DNA of 64,000 nucleotides from Picochlorum sp. SENEW3 (Eukaryota): assembly GCA_034226945.1 (NCBI GenBank), contig CP120461.1, positions 558,001 through 622,000 on the forward strand, given 5' to 3'. A program made the position numbers and the translations under genes. Below the pieces are notes generated by a model, which saw only the letters and a program-made list of their open reading frames with translations, was not told where the DNA came from and ran no database searches. Numbering within the stretch: the first letter of the stretch is position 1; each line of letters begins with the position of its first letter. Shown here piece after piece: positions 23,846-62,532 of the stretch.

Positions 23846-26393
23846 GATGATTGACCTATTCTTGATGGCATGTAAATTTCATAGCAGATCTTTGAAATGG
23901 ATCTAGATGTACATGCGTGCTATCTGAACTCATAAAGAGGAATGGTGAACAGGCGATCTGTGCCGTTGTCAAGTCAGCAGATATAAGCACTTTTCTCCCT
24001 CTACAGTGCATTATATTTCACGATTATTATATATTATTAAACTATATCTAAATATACATCGATTGAGGTATATATGAGCGTCATTGGTGCAGAATCAGAG
24101 ACGTGCGAGGCCATTCTTTCCGGACGTTTGTCTATCTCGTGCTGATATCCCATCCAAGGATCCCTTTGATAGGACATTAAATACCAACGCATCATCGGCG
24201 GTTGATTTGGTCACAGTCACGTCGCACACAGCTGCATAACTAAATTTCTCTGCAAATTTGGTCACAACAGAAATGGAATAGAATATAACTTATTAATTTT
24301 CAACTCAAGAGCCGCTGCGCAGGCAGCTTCTGGCTGGGAACGGAACCAACGAACAACAATTGTTAGTTGGTCTCCCGGTGGAAACTCTTCCAGGTGCGCT
24401 GCCATTCTGCGCTGCGAATTCGATCATATAATATAGTTTTTCTATTCATCATGACGCGAGTGAACCGAATGGTTGCTTCGGAGGTCACAACGACCCCGCC
24501 AATGAGACGCCGATCGAGTTGCGCCAGTTTTTGTGCAAAAGATCCTGTTTCGACGCGGATGGCAATAACAAAGTTATCTTTGCTACTGTTTGAAAAAGTT
24601 TCTGTCTGTCTGCAGATGCCTGTATGCCCTGATTGGCACCTCGCCATGACAGTTCCTGAGGAGTGTCTCTTTTCAAGTCAAACAGGGTATTTGGTGCCAT
24701 ACCCAATTCAGCGTGAGCCAAAACGCCAGAATTAGGGATACATTAGGAGCAAAACCTCGGAATAAGACTTGATTGGAAGATACTCAACGGTACTTTTCCT
24801 GCAAATGGATCCAGGCACATGCATCTCTTGTGTGAATTTCCACCTGGGCCTGTCACGCTAAATATGAGGATCTTTTGACGTTTCAAATGAGAATCATATA
24901 TATATGAAACTACGATCGTGTACTCGTTGGTAGAAGAGTTTGCTTCGTACAGCAGTACGAGAAGCAAGTCACTGCAACGCCATGGATTCCAGATGGGCTT
25001 GCAAGTTTGGCTTCCTAAAAGATATATACGGCGATCTTTGGTTTCTTATGCGTCAATTACATCGAAGAGCGCACTTTTTTCGACAATGTATACCCAGTAA
25101 GGGGCTGCCAGAGAATTCTATGAAAAAGTAGACAGGCATATTTGGGGGGCGCTGGCACTCAGCAGTCAGAGGTCCAATTGATGAACGTTGATCGCAATTA
25201 CTGCATTATCAAAGTATCACGAGGGCGGAATAAGGATTTCAAGTCCTAGAAACAATGAAGTGAGACGGTCATCTCCCACTCGAAATGTGATACCACTATG
25301 TATGAGCTTATTTTGGCTGACAAAGCTGTGCTCAGCGCATACATGCAAGTAAGGACGGGCAAAGTAGCAATATTAATTCTGAACAGTTGTATTTTGTCAG
25401 CAAAAAGATCCATTGAATCTGTGCTGGCATAAAAATGTATTGAATGGCAGTTGTGTGGCTGCCCTTTCTGTCTGAATGCCATTTCATGCACAACAAAAGA
25501 GATGAGTTCAGTGGTCGCTTGTTTAATGTGTATCTACTGTTCGATTTCCATGAAGAATGGCATAAAGAAGTGCAAGGATGGGCTGCTTTGCAGTAAGTTT
25601 GACCTGGTGGTCAACCACTTGAGACTGCAGGATCGACTACCAGCAAATTGCAAATCAAAGGTGTATCTAACACATTATGTGTCTTATGCATCAATAATTA
25701 GGCGCTCGCTTGATCAGCTATGCGCTAAAGTCGTCGTGTACAGTAGTAGTCAGTCTGTCGCAGGAATGTTGCTGGCAACAAGGACCAGCTCCTTTGGTCA
25801 AATCCATTCTTCATAGACTATTGGAATGACTTGTAAAGACATTTAGATACTTTGTCGCTGCCGATGTAGCCTGCATTTGTATTAGCCCAAGCTCACATTT
25901 GAAATCCCTGAAGTCGTTCGCGAACTGACCATCATCAAGAGAGTTTCTTTAGCATCGTTACTTACCTATGTTGAACATTACTGTATTTAGTATATCATGG
26001 ACAAATATAACCGTCAATAGTCAGGCATTTCCAGAAATAAATGAGGAGTGCAATGACTTCCCTACCAATCTACCCACATGAGGCCGTTCAAAAGCCTTCT
26101 TTGACCGTGGGCAACTGTCCTCTCGGGCTTCCCCGGCCTCGCACGTCTCTGATACTGCACCAATGACGCTCATATATACCTCAATTGATGTATATTTAGA
26201 TGTAGTTTAATAAAATATAACTATCGTAAAATTTAGTGCACTGTAGAGGGAGCAAATCGCTTATATCTGCTGACTTGACAACGGCACAGACCCGTGAACA
26301 GGCATTCCTTCAATCGACACATTTCAAAATCAAATGATGACTTCAGAATGATGGGGATAGATCACACACATTATCTTAAAATCGAAAATCAGG

Positions 26394-54152: not shown

Positions 54153-54921
54153 TCACGAACCATGGATGAATGCCTTGACCCTTCCAGAAAAATCCACCTG
54201 ATGCTGTATCCAGCTCAACAGTCCAGCATCCACGACTGTGGCACAATTGACGACCAAGAGCTGGTACGTGACAGGAACAAGAGCAAAGTTGATTGCTTGT
54301 ACTAATGGCCACATGGTGAGTTCGACAGCAAATGTGGGTACAAAATCCTTCTCCATCTTGTGTTGAACATCCCGGAAAGACCCACCTTCCATGAGCGTCA
54401 TACAGGTAAAGTATGCGCCCAGGTGGAGAGGTCCGAATACAATCGAATCTGCGAATACCTTGGCACCTATAAACACGAATGGAGATTTATGTTTGAGGAA
54501 TGCGAGGGCCAGCTCGTCCAGTTTTGTGTACCAGATATGGCCAATAGTGCCATTGAACAACCCTCCATAGAGCGATGCTGAGAGGGCTCTCCTGATATCC
54601 AAGGCATTTGATGGGACGATACCATCCATATCACTCGCGCTACTGCCATGAGTCTTCTCGCCGCGCTGCCCCTGCTGCTGCTCTACGGAGACTGCAGCTG
54701 CAGTAGAGGAGGAAGGAGACCCGTGATGCTGCGCATCATCAGATGACACCCTCTGAGCAAGAACATCCCCGATACCCCTGCATACTCGCATAATCTCATA
54801 ACATCCATTAATATACCAGGCCATTCTACCAAACGCACCACAGCACAGCACTGCTCACAATTTGTGTCGTAAATGGTCTCCTCTGAAGGTTTTTTGAATA
54901 GAACTGAATCAGACGCTGCAT
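54153..54921 (-). CDS. Mpv17/PMP22 family membrane protein, 2 exons
   Basis: RRPFTTQIVSSAVLW|GIGDVLAQ, GHIWY, WPLVQAINFALVP. Confidence 0.92.
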
Positions 54922-55422
54922 TTTATGTTCTTTTCAATGGATTTCAAATAGTAATAAGAGAAAATCGATCATCATTCATTGGAAATCATGTAATGTAATG
55001 TAAAGTACATGCTGCAGGTAGTCGCTCTATGTATATGTTCCCATGAGAAGACTAACACATTTGCCTTATTATTTTACTCCTAGAGAGTAATATAGATATA
55101 CATTTGGATTTTGATACCACGAGGTATTCCTGGCCAAGATCTCCAATGGTAAGAGATCTCCCGCGGGAGAACAGCTGCCCCGGTGCATCTGGTCACCAGA
55201 TGCAGGCAGACGGTTTGTAAACCCAATTTTGTTCAAGTGAGCGAATACCAAGGAACATGCCACACCATGGTCACCCAAGGGGTTCTGTGTAATATCATCA
55301 GAGTACCTCTTTGATAGGACCTTGATAGTTGGTACCCTATTTGCCAAATATTTCCACCCCACCCAACCGTATCGTAGGCCCTATTTGAGCGATAGGGTGG
55401 ATCAGAAATAGGCCTATTCGCC

Positions 55423-57833
55423 CTATGGCGAGGCCCCAGGCCTACTAGGAAGCAGCAGCTCCGTCTTACTGTCAGGCATTGTGTATTGGACATTGTTCTC
55501 CTGAAAGACACGGAAAACACCCTGATACAATAAAGATCCTGCAGTGTACCTCCGACTAGTTGAACAGCCCTGATGAGAGAGCTCGACAAGACCATAAATA
55601 CGTATTTTGGCTGGATCAGTCATCTCTTTAAAGACCAAAAGGAGCAGCTCTCCAAACTCTCCACTATTTTCTTGCATCACTGTCTCCAACCCGTTTCTCA
55701 TTTTTTCTAGGATAGATGAATCTATATCTCTATTTACGGCAACATTCAACTCATATATCCAATTCTTGGACCTGCTTAGGTTGCAAAGCATAACCAACTG
55801 CATCTCTTCATTTGCATACCAACAAGTTCTACTTGATGACCGCCTGCTTAAGCGGGTAAAGTTCAAGCGTACCTCCATCACCTTGTATTTTACCGAATCA
55901 ATCAGCACAAAATCCCCAACGTCGTACGGATGGCTTCCAAATAAGAAGATGAGGTTTGAGAACACAGATGCTGCTGTATTTCTAAAGATGAGAGATAACA
56001 CCGCCAAAAGTCCAGTGAACCCCAACCAAATTTGAGACACATGTGCTTGGAAAATCAGTAGGTAGAAGAAAAAGAAGATTGTGTGGATAATAATGCCAAG
56101 CAAGATCTCAAGCGCCTTAGTGATGGACTTGGTGTCCTGAAGCGTGGCAGCAAGGTTGCAGCGGTCCTGATGGATCTTCTCCACAGCATCTCGACAGTCC
56201 TCTCGTGTGATCTCACCATCGCCATTGACGTCAAGCATTCTGAAAGAGAGATCTACATCACCCTGCTCCTTGAAAAACACAGCAAGGTCCTCTTGGCAAA
56301 TGGAATGAGCATCCACAGACTGGGTGATGTTCCAGAACAGAAAGGCCGCCATCTGCCTTACAGACCTCTCGTCAATCGTCGATCTCTCGTGTACTTGATT
56401 CAACTCGTCCCGAAATGTCAATCTCATCTGCTTCTTTCGCATGTGGCGCTCCAAGCGATACAGGCGCTCCAAGTCCTGAGCACGGGACAGCGCAGAGCCC
56501 TGCCTGCCCGCAGCACGGACCTTCGACTTTCCTCCTCTGCCGCTTCTCGTACCACGGATAGAAGGTTGATCGACCTTGGGTGCTGGCCTAGGCAACCACT
56601 GCCAAAGCGAGCTTACCCTCCATCTGCTCCTGCCCCCCTCTACTGGGGGTGGCGTCCCTTCATGTGTCTCTGACAAGTCAATGGCTATTGGCAACATCGC
56701 CTCCTCACGAGACTGGCCACTATCATCTCTCTCCGAAATGCGTTTCAGCGCCCCATCTTCGGCAACATCTCTGGACAAGGGAGATCCTGCCTCCTCCATC
56801 CTCCTGGCCTCCTCTTGATGCCCAAGGCTGGTGCCACGTAGAAACTGCACCGCGCTATCCAGCCGACTGTCCAACGTCCCAGTGATGCTCCTTGAAGGAC
56901 GAGGGCCCATAAGTACAGAAAGGAGATGTTCTTGCTTCAAAGAAGTCTCCATCCGCGCCCGCTGATTTCTCCCAAGGTATGTCATTGACAGACTCTTCAC
57001 CAGCAGGCATGTCAGCAGAACCGCCAGCAGGAAAAGACTCACGCATCCCAGGATCTTCAGAATGATGTCGCACGTGATCTGCACCGCCTGACTCTCATTG
57101 CTGCTCCCAATTAGCATGAAGCAAGCCCAGAAGATGAGCACAAAAGTGGAGCGCAGCAGCCATTTCACCCATTTCCGGGAGGCATACGTATAGTACAGAG
57201 CGTTCGTGCTGGTCAAAAATATTTTTTCCACAAACTTGATCATCACCCACGTGCAAAACGTCCCCAGCACCCATGCGACGGGAAGGGATGCCAAGAAGAA
57301 CAACAACCGCCACTCACGGAACTTACTCTCCAGCCCTTGGTCCACCGCATGATAGATTGCTCCGCAAAGAAGACCTACCTGGGCGCACACTATCACCAGC
57401 CAAATGTGAACACGACGCCGACGGTACCAAGGAAGCTTCCGCTGGGCCCTCAACTCCTCCTCAACTGCCTCGTCATCAGAGGCCCACAGCATGTCATCTC
57501 GGCTCATCTGCATATTCCAACAAACCACCACCGGGTCACTCAACAGCCGATGTTGAAATACCCTATCGTGGTCATATCAGCCAACACACGCACCGACAGC
57601 AGGTCCGCAGCAGCCTGAGCGTCGTCCTCATCGCTCGACGCCTCGTCCGCAAACCGGGATGCTCTGCTGCCATATCCCTCACTCCGACCCAGTGACGCCA
57701 CCTCGCTCCACACTTTCGATGACCCCACCTCTGTTGCCACCGCATCTGGAGGGCGAGACCTGGTGCGGGTACCCGCAGGGACAGGGTGCGGGGCTTTATG
57801 GCCATGCTCGCCCTGGACCTCTGTGTCACCCAT
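55423..57833 (-). CDS. MscS-like mechanosensitive channel with EF-hand, copy A; exons 57833-57594 and 57507-55423
   Basis: Multi-TM N-terminus, DVNGDGEITRED EF-hand, IFLFGSHPYDVGD MscS motif, NLSRS. Confidence 0.9.
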
Positions 57834-58088
57834 GGTACCCCATACGGCTTTCCCAACAGAGAATGATGAATAACAATAATATAAATAATAGGATAGGCGG
57901 GTGAAACACGAGTCCAAGCAACCAAAATAACAAGTGCTCCTTCAGCGCACGCGTGTCAAACGACGCCTAGTTCAAACACGCGACCCTCGTGTCATTCAAA
58001 TTCATTTGAAGGTGTAGGTGGGCATTCCAGTTCATCATTCTTTTGATATAATAATTGCATCTACGCTCCCCGACCAACCTGGATCTCC
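56005..58088 (+). repeat. Direct repeat unit 1 (2,084 bp), near-identical to 59615-61698
   Basis: Matches at offset +3610; differences seen only at 56911, 57329 and 57462. Confidence 0.95.
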
Positions 58089-58370
58089 TCCTTTTGCTCC
58101 TCTATGATCAAACATGGTCCTTGCCTCGGGCAGACTTCATCCCATATATATGAGGCCACATGGCATATGGTATATGCATGCATGCATGGCCATGGGGATC
58201 GAGGGTGTATAGTTCCACAACATGTGCACTCGTGGGCAGGCCTGCCGACATAGGGTGTCAACACGTATTTCTGACAAGCCTGGTGGTTTCGTCCCAGCAA
58301 GTATTGGGGTGGAGGTCTTGATACGATGCAACGTGGCCTGAGGAAAATCATGTGGAGAAGCTGATGGCAA

Positions 58371-58817
58371 TTAGAATGGCGTGGGAAAAATCATCTTTCT
58401 GAATGAAAGTATCTCTTCGCTTCCATCGTTACCATCGTAATCAGCAAATTTATTACTCTCAATGTCATATTGAGAGCTAATCATAGCGCCAAGGTAGCCG
58501 ATCGGTGCTGGTGTTGACAGGGAAAGTTGCGCCTGTGTCACAAGAGTAAATTGCGTCTGTATTCTGGTTGTTTCATGTGGCTTCAAAAGTCTCTCATGGT
58601 ACAAATACCTATTGTATTCAGGTCTCGTCTTTTCGATTGTCGCTTCCATGAGAGAGATGGGATATGGAAAAAATTTCCCCCGTACAACGTAAGATCTGAC
58701 GACAGATTTCAGGGGTCCATGTGGAGGCTTGTCTCTGTAACGCCCAACCCCACTGAGGAATAGATTCCACTCCGGAGGTTTCTCGTGTTTGCAATGTAGG
58801 GTTGAGGTATCTGACAT
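58371..58817 (-). CDS. Orphan 148-aa ORF between the MscS paralogs
   Basis: Intact ATG-TAA ORF after an AT-rich leader; no recognisable motif. Confidence 0.35.
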   Translation of the reverse strand: MSDTSTLHCKHEKPPEWNLFLSGVGRYRDKPPHGPLKSVVRSYVVRGKFFPYPISLMEATIEKTRPEYNRYLYHERLLKPHETTRIQTQFTLVTQAQLSLSTPAPIGYLGAMISSQYDIESNKFADYDGNDGSEEILSFRKMIFPTPF

Positions 58818-58978
58818 GAAATATGAGAGAAATGAAATTAATGTAATATACTATGAAAATACGTAAGCTAATATTCACCACCGACAATGTGAATCAAAAT
58901 ACCACAAGGTACAATTCTAGCAATGGTTCTGCAGGCTACGCGACTGTAAATCTCGGATCAGGTGCTGCTTCATTCGAT

Positions 58979-61443
58979 TCACTCTGATTTTCTTGCCTCT
59001 GTAGCGCGTCTCAATCGCAAATATGAGGTCGTTTGAGGAGAGTCTGCAACACCCTCTTCCGACTCCGCTGGGACTGAAGCTGGCCAGGTGTACTGTACAT
59101 TCATCTTCACCAGAGCTCGGCTCACAGCCTCTAGTATCCAACTCCGGCATTTCAGATACCGGAGTTGATCTTCAGCCTTGTGGGCCATCCTGTACATAAC
59201 AGTGATCTCTGCTTTGCATAGAGGGCCTGGCTCTCCAAAACTAACATAACAGACATCGGCAAACTCCCCTGGTCTATTTTCTATTTCCACACCCACCTCC
59301 ATTTTTATGACCTCCAAAATTTTCGAATCAGTGTCAATATCTACATATATTCCTGATATAATGTCAATGAAGGATTCTGACGTTGTCAAGTTCTGGAATA
59401 ACAAAGTCTGTAACACAATGTTTGGATACCAAATCCTCCGATTCATCGACGTGAAACACGTATAGTTCAGTGTAACTTCATCCACACGCAAACGATATTC
59501 ATATCCTTTCACCAATAGGGTATCACCTACATCAAATGGATGTTCCACAAAGAGAAAGATAATATTTCCCACCACAGTGGTTGCTGCATTTGTAAGGACA
59601 AATGATAAAGATAACAAAAGTCCAGTGAACCCCAACCAAATTTGAGACACATGTGCTTGGAAAATCAGTAGGTAGAAGAAAAAGAAGATTGTGTGGATAA
59701 TAATGCCAAGCAAGATCTCAAGCGCCTTAGTGATGGACTTGGTGTCCTGAAGCGTGGCAGCAAGGTTGCAGCGGTCCTGATGGATCTTCTCCACAGCATC
59801 TCGACAGTCCTCTCGTGTGATCTCACCATCGCCATTGACGTCAAGCATTCTGAAAGAGAGATCTACATCACCCTGCTCCTTGAAAAACACAGCAAGGTCC
59901 TCTTGGCAAATGGAATGAGCATCCACAGACTGGGTGATGTTCCAGAACAGAAAGGCCGCCATCTGCCTTACAGACCTCTCGTCAATCGTCGATCTCTCGT
60001 GTACTTGATTCAACTCGTCCCGAAATGTCAATCTCATCTGCTTCTTTCGCATGTGGCGCTCCAAGCGATACAGGCGCTCCAAGTCCTGAGCACGGGACAG
60101 CGCAGAGCCCTGCCTGCCCGCAGCACGGACCTTCGACTTTCCTCCTCTGCCGCTTCTCGTACCACGGATAGAAGGTTGATCGACCTTGGGTGCTGGCCTA
60201 GGCAACCACTGCCAAAGCGAGCTTACCCTCCATCTGCTCCTGCCCCCCTCTACTGGGGGTGGCGTCCCTTCATGTGTCTCTGACAAGTCAATGGCTATTG
60301 GCAACATCGCCTCCTCACGAGACTGGCCACTATCATCTCTCTCCGAAATGCGTTTCAGCGCCCCATCTTCGGCAACATCTCTGGACAAGGGAGATCCTGC
60401 CTCCTCCATCCTCCTGGCCTCCTCTTGATGCCCAAGGCTGGTGCCACGTAGAAACTGCACCGCGCTATCCAGCCGACTGTCCAACGTCCCAGTGATGCTC
60501 CTTGAAGGACGAGGGCCCATCAGTACAGAAAGGAGATGTTCTTGCTTCAAAGAAGTCTCCATCCGCGCCCGCTGATTTCTCCCAAGGTATGTCATTGACA
60601 GACTCTTCACCAGCAGGCATGTCAGCAGAACCGCCAGCAGGAAAAGACTCACGCATCCCAGGATCTTCAGAATGATGTCGCACGTGATCTGCACCGCCTG
60701 ACTCTCATTGCTGCTCCCAATTAGCATGAAGCAAGCCCAGAAGATGAGCACAAAAGTGGAGCGCAGCAGCCATTTCACCCATTTCCGGGAGGCATACGTA
60801 TAGTACAGAGCGTTCGTGCTGGTCAAAAATATTTTTTCCACAAACTTGATCATCACCCACGTGCAAAACGTCCCCAGCACCCATGCGACGGGAAGGGATG
60901 CCAAGAAGAACAACAACCGCCACTCACGGAACTTACTCCCCAGCCCTTGGTCCACCGCATGATAGATTGCTCCGCAAAGAAGACCTACCTGGGCGCACAC
61001 TATCACCAGCCAAATGTGAACACGACGCCGACGGTACCAAGGAAGCTTCCGCTGGGCCCTCAACTCCTCCTTAACTGCCTCGTCATCAGAGGCCCACAGC
61101 ATGTCATCTCGGCTCATCTGCATATTCCAACAAACCACCACCGGGTCACTCAACAGCCGATGTTGAAATACCCTATCGTGGTCATATCAGCCAACACACG
61201 CACCGACAGCAGGTCCGCAGCAGCCTGAGCGTCGTCCTCATCGCTCGACGCCTCGTCCGCAAACCGGGATGCTCTGCTGCCATATCCCTCACTCCGACCC
61301 AGTGACGCCACCTCGCTCCACACTTTCGATGACCCCACCTCTGTTGCCACCGCATCTGGAGGGCGAGACCTGGTGCGGGTACCCGCAGGGACAGGGTGCG
61401 GGGCTTTATGGCCATGCTCGCCCTGGACCTCTGTGTCACCCAT
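58979..61443 (-). CDS. MscS-like mechanosensitive channel with EF-hand, copy B; exons 61443-61204 and 61117-58979
   Basis: Same N-terminus as copy A; IFLFVEHPFDVGD, WYPN. Confidence 0.9.
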
Positions 61444-61698
61444 GGTACCCCATACGGCTTTCCCAACAGAGAATGATGAATAACAATAATATAAATAATA
61501 GGATAGGCGGGTGAAACACGAGTCCAAGCAACCAAAATAACAAGTGCTCCTTCAGCGCACGCGTGTCAAACGACGCCTAGTTCAAACACGCGACCCTCGT
61601 GTCATTCAAATTCATTTGAAGGTGTAGGTGGGCATTCCAGTTCATCATTCTTTTGATATAATAATTGCATCTACGCTCCCCGACCAACCTGGATCTCC
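59615..61698 (+). repeat. Direct repeat unit 2 (2,084 bp)
   Basis: Matches 56005-58088. Confidence 0.95.
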
Positions 61699-61980
61699 CA
61701 AAGAGACTGCTCCATTTTTGCCATCATCAGCTCAGATTCTCTGTAATCATTGTTCAAACTTACCTTGTTGTAACACTATTTATTCTCTGATCCAATCCAT
61801 ACAGGAGGTTTTAAGATTGCTTCTACAGTGACTGATGAAGTACCCATGCATGGGTACGTGGGTGCAAATCCTTGCACCGGCACGCCTGGGTCGTTGGGCA
61901 GCCGTTACGACGAATCACGATGATGATGAAAATTCAAGATAGCCCTTCATTATCCTCATAGCCTATAGATAATATTATAA

Positions 61981-62532
61981 ATGGGTAATATACAGAGTTC
62001 AGCAACGTACAGCGGCGGTGGTGGTTTGTCATTGAAAGAATTGGAGCGATTGCAACGACGGGTCGAACGTCTTGGACGAGGTCGCAGCGAATTGGCTCGG
62101 TCAGATCTCAAGAGTATTCCAGAGTTGTCTCAAAATCCGTTTATGGAGTCTATTTTTAGGATATATGACGGGGATGGGGATGGGTTGTTAGAGTTGGGAG
62201 ACCTGAAGAGGCTCATGGAAAGGCTTTCGGCATTGGTCAAGGATCAGGAGGCTCAGTGCAAGTTTGCCTTTGATATTTTTGATAGGAATGGAGATGGGTG
62301 TATAGATAAAGATGAGTTGTTGCGTGTGTTACGAGTGACGCATGGGGGGAGGAGAATGTCAGAGGAGGATGTTGACAGGGTTGCCACGGCAACCCTGGCA
62401 GAGCATGGGAGTGAGGTTGAGATGGGGGGCGTGTTGACGTTTGAAGACTTTACCAGGCTGATGCTGAGCAATTCTACGATGCTTGTGACCAGTGCTGGTG
62501 GTGGTGGATGTGGACAACACAACCAAGGGTGA
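61981..62532 (+). CDS. Calcineurin B-like EF-hand protein, N-myristoylation motif
   Basis: MGNIQS, IPELSQNPF, DGDGDGLLE, FAFDIFDRNGDGCIDKDEL. Confidence 0.85.
   Translation: MGNIQSSATYSGGGGLSLKELERLQRRVERLGRGRSELARSDLKSIPELSQNPFMESIFRIYDGDGDGLLELGDLKRLMERLSALVKDQEAQCKFAFDIFDRNGDGCIDKDELLRVLRVTHGGRRMSEEDVDRVATATLAEHGSEVEMGGVLTFEDFTRLMLSNSTMLVTSAGGGGCGQHNQG

Follow-up and report, generated by a model that had tools for sequence, protein, structure and literature searches.

Two MSL10-type channel genes in tandem in Picochlorum sp. SENEW3 share a near-identical 5' block and differ in pore and cage

A window of 64,000 nucleotides from Picochlorum sp. SENEW3 (contig CP120461.1, positions 558,001 to 622,000; coordinates below count from the first letter of the window) contains two neighbouring genes for MscS-like mechanosensitive channels, here called A and B, that are nearly identical over about their first three quarters and only distantly similar beyond. 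We consider it probable that they are tandem duplicates of the MSL10 type, in which recurrent interlocus gene conversion covers the stretch from the leader to codon 581 and selection keeps two different pores apart. The named relatives of both proteins are from Picochlorum green algae, and the host is described as salt-tolerant.

Both genes lie on the reverse strand. Gene A (55423-57833) encodes a protein of 774 amino acids in two exons (57594-57833 and 55423-57507), and gene B (58979-61443) encodes a protein of 792 amino acids (exons 61204-61443 and 58979-61117). Each contains a single GT..AG intron of 86 nt (57508-57593 in A, 61118-61203 in B), and the spliced translations match the database proteins P0001 (A) and P0012 (B) exactly. 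A self-comparison of the window revealed one long direct repeat on the reverse strand, 56005-58088 in A and 59615-61698 in B, with copies of 2084 nt each, an offset of 3610 nt and exactly three substitutions (56911/60521, 57329/60939 and 57462/61072), the effects of which are one silent change, E140G and E96K. The start codons lie at 57833 and 61443, and the block comprises a leader of 255 nt before each of them, the intron, and codons 1-581, which end in ..WLGFTGLL. It encodes the N-terminal region, the transmembrane helices TM1-TM5, a cytoplasmic linker with an EF-hand-like loop, and the outer half of TM6a. The remaining codons form tail A (55423-56004; codons 582-774 and the stop, with the gate, TM6b, beta domain and cage) and tail B (58979-59614; codons 582-792 and the stop).

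The block ends abruptly. All six bases of codons 582 and 583 differ between the two genes, BLAST extends the alignment into the tails by only 42 nt at low identity with 16 mismatches, and identity on the same diagonal in the 100-nt windows flanking the block is at background (17-39 per 100). No leftover similarity above 300 shuffles was found outside either edge (upstream, p 0.61; 3' untranslated region (UTR), p 0.44). The tails are identical at 59 of 175 aligned residues (34%), and 16 of their 22 fourfold degenerate sites differ, i.e. these sites are saturated. The initial annotation, made from the sequence alone, described this architecture correctly: the near-identity of the two stretches, the inclusion of about 255 nt upstream of the ATG, the intron, the transmembrane helices and the EF-hand-like region, the stop after WLGFTGLL, both quoted tail peptides, and the two intact frames with distantly similar ends all agree with the gene models, as does its view of two intact paralogs with different pores and cages and a homogenised 5' block.

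It had also proposed read depth as a check and named an artefact as a refuting case, a test that the pair passes. Run X2, a metagenome from another study code, yielded contigs corresponding to 54900-56034 (depth 15), 58059-59644 (14.8), 59615-61698 (33.3) and 61669-62144 (20). The block contig is exactly 2084 nt long and overlaps its neighbours by 30 nt at all four edges. Two paths thus lead into the contig and two lead out of it, as expected of an exact repeat, and its edges coincide with those in the window; contig 17 of this run spans the block end, the spacer, tail B and the block start. In run X9, the block contigs have a depth of 20.2-21 versus 9.85-11.9 elsewhere, and a branching of contigs at one and the same 3' edge is seen in X2, X9 and X10, runs that carry three study codes. 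As contig depth is not copy number, the argument for a real duplication is carried mainly by the branching. In X2, both copies are represented by one unbroken contig with no differences within the strain, so that the three differences in the window are private mutations or errors. That the block is an assembly or haplotype artefact, to which the near-perfect identity of the copies and the possibility that the private differences are polishing errors or heterozygous sites would lend some colour, is extremely unlikely given the shared branching, the roughly doubled depth in X2 and X9, the recovery of all four junctions with the bridging contig, and the full-length transcripts of A and B on record, and we rejected it. 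Three adjacent bases at 59078-59080 differ from the window in X2, X9 and X10 alike (A760S) and represent a private change or an error in the window.

Comparisons between strains indicate that the block has been homogenised more than once. The unbroken double-depth block contigs of X9 differ from the window at no fewer than eight sites, all at full depth (56209, 60251, 60334, 60345, 60488, 60495, 60496 and 60987), whereas only one copy-specific site, 61649, is found; both counts are among the 40 of 72 differences listed. Run X10 contains four of the eight differences, lacks two and does not cover the other two, and it carries the 61649 change on a contig common to both copies; its sequence therefore reads as a third set of alleles common to both copies. 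If the copies did not exchange sequence, a new mutation would be confined to the copy in which it arose, and the full-depth differences on common contigs thus point to recurrent homogenisation. Consistently, residues 1-581 are identical between the P. oklahomense transcripts P0013 (A) and P0055 (B), and both differ from the window by V124A, I288A, S338L and D342N. The outgroup P0015, a more distant A-type protein, has V124, V288 and S338, which places derived alleles in both copies in each of two lineages, at codon 288 in the lineage of the window and X2 and at codons 124 and 288 in the lineage of X9 and X10.

Inside the block, the paralogs are thereby closer to each other than the orthologs, with three differences within the window strain, none in X2 and one listed in X9, versus at least eight between the window and X9. 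Outside the block, the orthologs are closer (177/177 and 165/177 identical residues for tail A and 177/178 for tail B, versus 59/175 between A and B). In these close strains, homogenisation has occurred repeatedly, in separate lineages and up to the same edges. The earlier suggestion that two old paralogs were recently homogenised by gene conversion or unequal crossover hence stands for the homogenisation, but not for a single recent event.

Base composition also changes at about the position of the block edge. GC content at third codon positions (GC3) falls from 0.63 in the block to 0.48 and 0.42 in the two tails (366/581 in the block versus 181/404 in both tails together, p 2e-8), and a paralog on contig C5 of the genome G000 has 0.47 over the corresponding part. 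At fourfold degenerate sites the GC content is 0.56 in the block versus 0.42 in the tails (p 0.003), and in a comparison with the C5 paralog 50 sites have GC in the block and 23 show the reverse (p 0.002). In A and B, the 5' part has a GC3 of 0.62-0.63, higher than in any of 26 control open reading frames (ORFs; maximum 0.536). GC-biased gene conversion raises the GC content of the sequences it acts on, and the step in GC3 suggests that such conversion has taken place and that the homogenisation is long-standing.

The best matches of both proteins among solved structures are Arabidopsis MSL10 (PDB 8TDJ and 8JWE) and Flycatcher1 of the Venus flytrap (7N5D), with E-values of 1e-20 to 4e-25, and the match to MSL10 covers residues 454-757 in both. 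The score for the MscS beta domain PF00924 is 21.6 bits in A and 15.7 bits in B (cut-off 20.2), and tail A is also assigned to PF00924 by its features. Hydropathy indicates six hydrophobic segments (residues 112-136, 147-173, 194-215, 221-259, 541-571 and 570-588/604), and the alignment to MSL10 places a cytoplasmic linker between TM4 and TM5. Like MSL10 and Flycatcher1, both proteins combine these segments and this linker with a C-terminal HP(F/Y)D(V/I)GD motif, a beta domain and a cage, as in group III channels. Both are predicted to be heptameric channels gated by tension, with lipid-facing helices and a linker in common.

The alignment to MSL10 is free of gaps, so that MSL10 numbers equal the query residue minus 33, a register confirmed by the G556V and K539E mutant chains. 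Residues 582, 586 and 589 thereby correspond to V549, F553 and G556, and the block edge falls between codons 581 and 582, i.e. one codon before the V549 equivalent. In MSL10, V549 and F553 form a hydrophobic gate, bulk at position 553 correlates negatively with conductance, and G556V is non-conducting (excerpt of PMC10560256), and the gate phenylalanine is conserved in group III (excerpt of PMC10552396). Unlike MSL10, gene A encodes Ala, Leu and Arg at the two gate positions and the kink (codons 582-589, 55981-56004), while gene B encodes Leu, Phe and Thr (59591-59614); the C5 paralog has Val, Phe and Ala. The gate phenylalanine is hence present in B (F586) and absent in A (L586), and the small kink residue is replaced in both (R589 and T589). 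Among 57 homologs, position 582 is never Ala, position 586 is Phe in 54, and position 589 is never Arg or Thr (34 Gly, 12 Ala, six Ser, four Gln and one gap). Family-conserved tail positions are kept at 17 of 27 sites in A and 24 of 27 in B. The changed kink residues would mark altered pores rather than exclusion from group III by descent. Judged from these residues, A is predicted to have a smaller, positively charged gate, with a wider pore and altered conductance or selectivity, and B a conventional bulky gate. The statement in the initial annotation that the helix before the HP(F/Y)DVGD motif lines the pore needs to be modified, since the helix directly before the motif is TM6b and the junction splits the gate-forming TM6a; that pore and cage differ between the copies is retained.

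The EF-hand-like loop in the linker (residues 506-517; 56197-56232 in A and 59807-59842 in B, reverse strand) is single, scores 20.8 bits against a Pfam cut-off of 25.4, and has Asp at loop position 12. A canonical calcium-binding EF-hand is a paired helix-loop-helix with Glu at this position. Calcium sensing by the channels is a prediction, as are tension gating and heteromers. The fission yeast proteins Msy1 and Msy2 carry an EF-hand. They are eukaryotic MscS homologs that act in hypo-osmotic shock (excerpt of PMC12028594), and the likeness of A and B to them is one of description, the loop being single and below the cut-off here. MSL9 and MSL10 form heteromers (excerpts of PMC10560256 and PMC10552396), and by analogy a mixing of A and B subunits is plausible.

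To place the pair in the family, phylogenies were inferred for the N-terminal module (14 rows left out as fragments, duplicates or two outgroup-like rows) and for the tails (seven of 37 rows left out as duplicates, one truncated sequence and the same two of five outgroup-like rows). The N-terminal module nests within the C5 clade with support of 100/100, and tails A and B are sisters (96/94) on branches of about one change per site. The genome G000 contains two further whole members of the subfamily, on contigs C5 and C1, and neither a donor, a headless copy nor a third copy of the block or tails was found in it. The nearest relative of tail B outside its own cluster is the C5 clade (42% identity) among 1.84 billion representatives. 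A search of long proteins with tail B gave three distant matches (29-31% identity, two of them named fungal) at a low sensitivity at which C5 was missed as well; this search and a companion one covered protein lengths other than 371-434 and below 116 amino acids. Scans of JGI metagenomes with tail B and with P0015 gave no locus. A viral or foreign origin of the tails was rejected, as no viral locus was obtained for tail A and tail B is closest to the algal C5 clade, the large library having been searched with tail B only. In a named Picochlorum strain, the proteins P0019 and P0020 represent a C5 ortholog that is 96-100% identical in three core regions, and no A- or B-type protein occurs in the clusters examined; the pair may be lost or unannotated there.

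These results bear on a different origin, in which the pair is a one-off chimera, a crossover in the conserved TM6 region having fused a duplicated 5' block with the tail that belonged to a separate and older paralog. Later conversion would then only maintain the duplicate, and the junction would be a crossover point rather than a selected edge. Such a chimera would explain why similarity is lacking outside both edges and why the junction lies in the most conserved stretch, and it fits with tail placements that are unsettled by approximately unbiased (AU) tests and with a pair seen in one lineage group only, among the collections searched. Against it, G000 holds no headless donor or third copy and its C5 and C1 members are whole; moreover, tail B is closest, at 42%, to the C5 clade, the tails group together in the tree, and a GC step inside one exon, with the raised GC absent from both tails and from C5, takes a long time. 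We find the chimera unlikely.

Under the preferred reading of tandem duplicates under recurrent conversion, the pair would have arisen by tandem duplication of a gene from the clade of the C5 paralog. Changes of the gate at positions 582, 586 and 589 would have been favoured and conversion tracts crossing codon 582 purged, after which the tails would have lost their similarity at the DNA level and the edge would have frozen at codon 581/582. Selection against conversion at the edge is suggested by the position of the edge next to codon 582 together with the unusual gate residues, and both fit a model of selection against conversion tracts that extend over a site at which the paralogs have diverged in function (excerpt of PMC3924837).

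The edge could also be neutral. Conversion would then be real, and the similarity would have decayed by chance from the 3' end, with selection on tail A relaxed and the tail drifting as that of a weak or non-conducting subunit. In line with this, A has lost 10 of the 27 conserved tail positions, including the gate phenylalanine, versus two to six in five comparison proteins (ortholog excluded), and its tail changes faster between lineages than the N-terminal core (12/177 versus 11/340, p 0.07), the reverse of what is seen in C5 (3/176 versus 25/341, p 0.007). Drift is harder to reconcile with frames that are open over 193 and 211 codons despite saturated fourfold sites, with the retention in P0015 of nine of the ten unusual residues of A, and with the presence of A in named transcripts and its coverage in X10, and we hold a neutral edge to be slightly less likely even than a chimera.

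Several observations weigh against recurrent conversion with a selected edge. The junction falls within the stretch that is conserved best, which is also where a single crossover would be expected, and the match between edge and gate was noticed after the fact. By the AU tests, tail B could also group with C1 (p 0.128) or with only the C5 clade (p 0.053), and as both tail branches are long, their pairing as sisters may be artefactual, so that an origin by whole-gene tandem duplication is favoured rather than shown. A lineage with about 95% identity gave gene A (P0015) and exon-1 fragments but no tail B, and transcriptome assembly can merge near-identical parts, so that P0013 and P0055 alone are no proof of identity. 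The strains behind the conversion evidence are only about 0.4% apart, which makes the evidence for deeper time compositional; here, a GC3 step equally large (0.175) occurs in one of the 26 control ORFs, and the five polarisable recent changes are without GC bias (two to GC and three to AT).

Both genes appear to be transcribed. In X10, which is listed as a presumed RNA run, the intron is absent from all contigs and an unbroken contig joins the sequence on either side of it, the intron of gene B is spliced, and both tails are covered. Complete transcripts are on record for A, for B and for a form of B with another C-terminus. The RNA run X17 is patchy, with a depth of 2-4 and neither tail covered, and is uninformative. 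The RNA-type contig that shows the spliced intron also includes the shared 255 nt, and X10 contigs run past the upstream block edge into copy-specific DNA for both copies. Although the contigs give neither RNA strand nor start, this indicates that the shared 255 nt are a transcribed leader and that the promoters of A and B probably differ. The idea of co-regulated channels, and with it a promoter shared through the 255-nt part, is thus not supported. The unique spacer (58089-58978) consists of the 3' UTR of B and the copy-specific upstream DNA of A and is without similarity to the DNA upstream of B (61699-61980). Since X10 covers most of the spacer, there may be read-through from B into A. The transcript protein P0056 (797 amino acids) has an end peptide that is encoded further downstream in the same frame, at about 58870-59010 on the reverse strand, which suggests an alternative intron at the end of gene B.

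The evolutionary pattern as such is a known one, seen in TLR1/TLR6, the opsins and GOT1. A divergence peak under gene conversion is also said to occur in RHD/RHCE. Such peaks have been described for GOT1 of Tigriopus (excerpt of PMC3728101) and for BMP8A/B, DDX19A/B and TUBG1/2 (excerpt of PMC2720389), and in the red and green opsins a high identity between paralogs is broken by divergence at functionally selected sites (excerpt of PMC3924837). In contrast to the opsin, GOT1 and BMP8 cases, the divergence here is extreme (34% identity, saturated silent sites), one-sided, and has a sharp edge that abuts the first gate codon. TLR1 and TLR6 are, like A and B, tandem membrane-protein paralogs in which each lineage has independently homogenised one region, with nearly coincident edges, and other domains have diverged, but the converted part is the C-terminal stretch of about 300 amino acids (excerpt of PMC2077338), as opposed to the N-terminal 581 amino acids with leader and intron here. 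The spared part here is the pore and cage, normally the most conserved in the family (86-100% identity among C5 orthologs in the tail region). It is this inversion that is unusual, the normally most conserved part having diverged and the variable part being frozen, as are the gate of A and the coincidence of the edge with the first gate codon. MSL9 and MSL10 are 75%-identical paralogs, with no shared identical module mentioned in the available text of PMC10560256. The Picochlorum genome paper reports seven mechanosensitive channels, and its main text mentions neither a tandem nor gene conversion; a literature search, sparse in subscription papers, gave no report of such a conversion pattern for MscS-like channels or for this pair.

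The pair represents a natural chimera experiment, in which the same residues 1-581 are joined to two naturally viable pores and cages, and would be a natural test of the role of the pore alone. It bears on the coupling between the gate and the outer helices and linker in MSL10-type channels and on what sets their conductance and anion preference. The pair also illustrates, very sharply, a conversion edge that coincides with a functional residue, and both genes are candidates for salinity tolerance in a genus of biotechnological interest. A more far-reaching and rather doubtful possibility is a modular MscS-like system, in which conversion would keep a tension-sensing module unchanged and two pore-and-cage modules, each under its own regulation, would be exchanged behind it. 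The Ala/Leu/Arg gate of A, found in none of the 57 homologs, might then form a wide, probably anion-favouring release pore, mixed heptamers of both subunits might adjust conductance to salinity, and the edge would mark the gate to the codon.

Further features were observed around the pair. The exon-1 fragments P0058, P0060, P0061, P0062 and P0064 come from the more distant lineage and represent three variants; one of them lies on a contig of 3635 nt, near the repeat period of 3610 nt, and might represent this tandem collapsed into a loop. Loose contig ends occur at 58174-58178 in X9 and X10, with a 5-nt overlap in X10, which suggests that these strains have DNA inserted or replaced upstream of gene A, and X17 has a diverged copy of 58181-58289, a stretch that is single-copy in G000. 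An EF-hand protein gene at 61981-62532 (forward strand), which is presumably calcineurin-B-like, lies head to head with gene B, the ATG of which is about 540 nt away. A search of 54800-62100 for structured RNA gave no Rfam match at E up to 1. Just past the stop of gene A, a small dispersed repeat (55309-55412) has matches of 83-88% on contigs C5, C10 and C12; it contains imperfect inverted repeats, has no Rfam match, and a similar motif is located near 24180. An inverted repeat of 156 nt with 92% identity (23957-24112 and 26135-26290) encloses about 2 kb without a long ORF (longest, 127 amino acids) and is possibly a non-autonomous or decayed DNA element.

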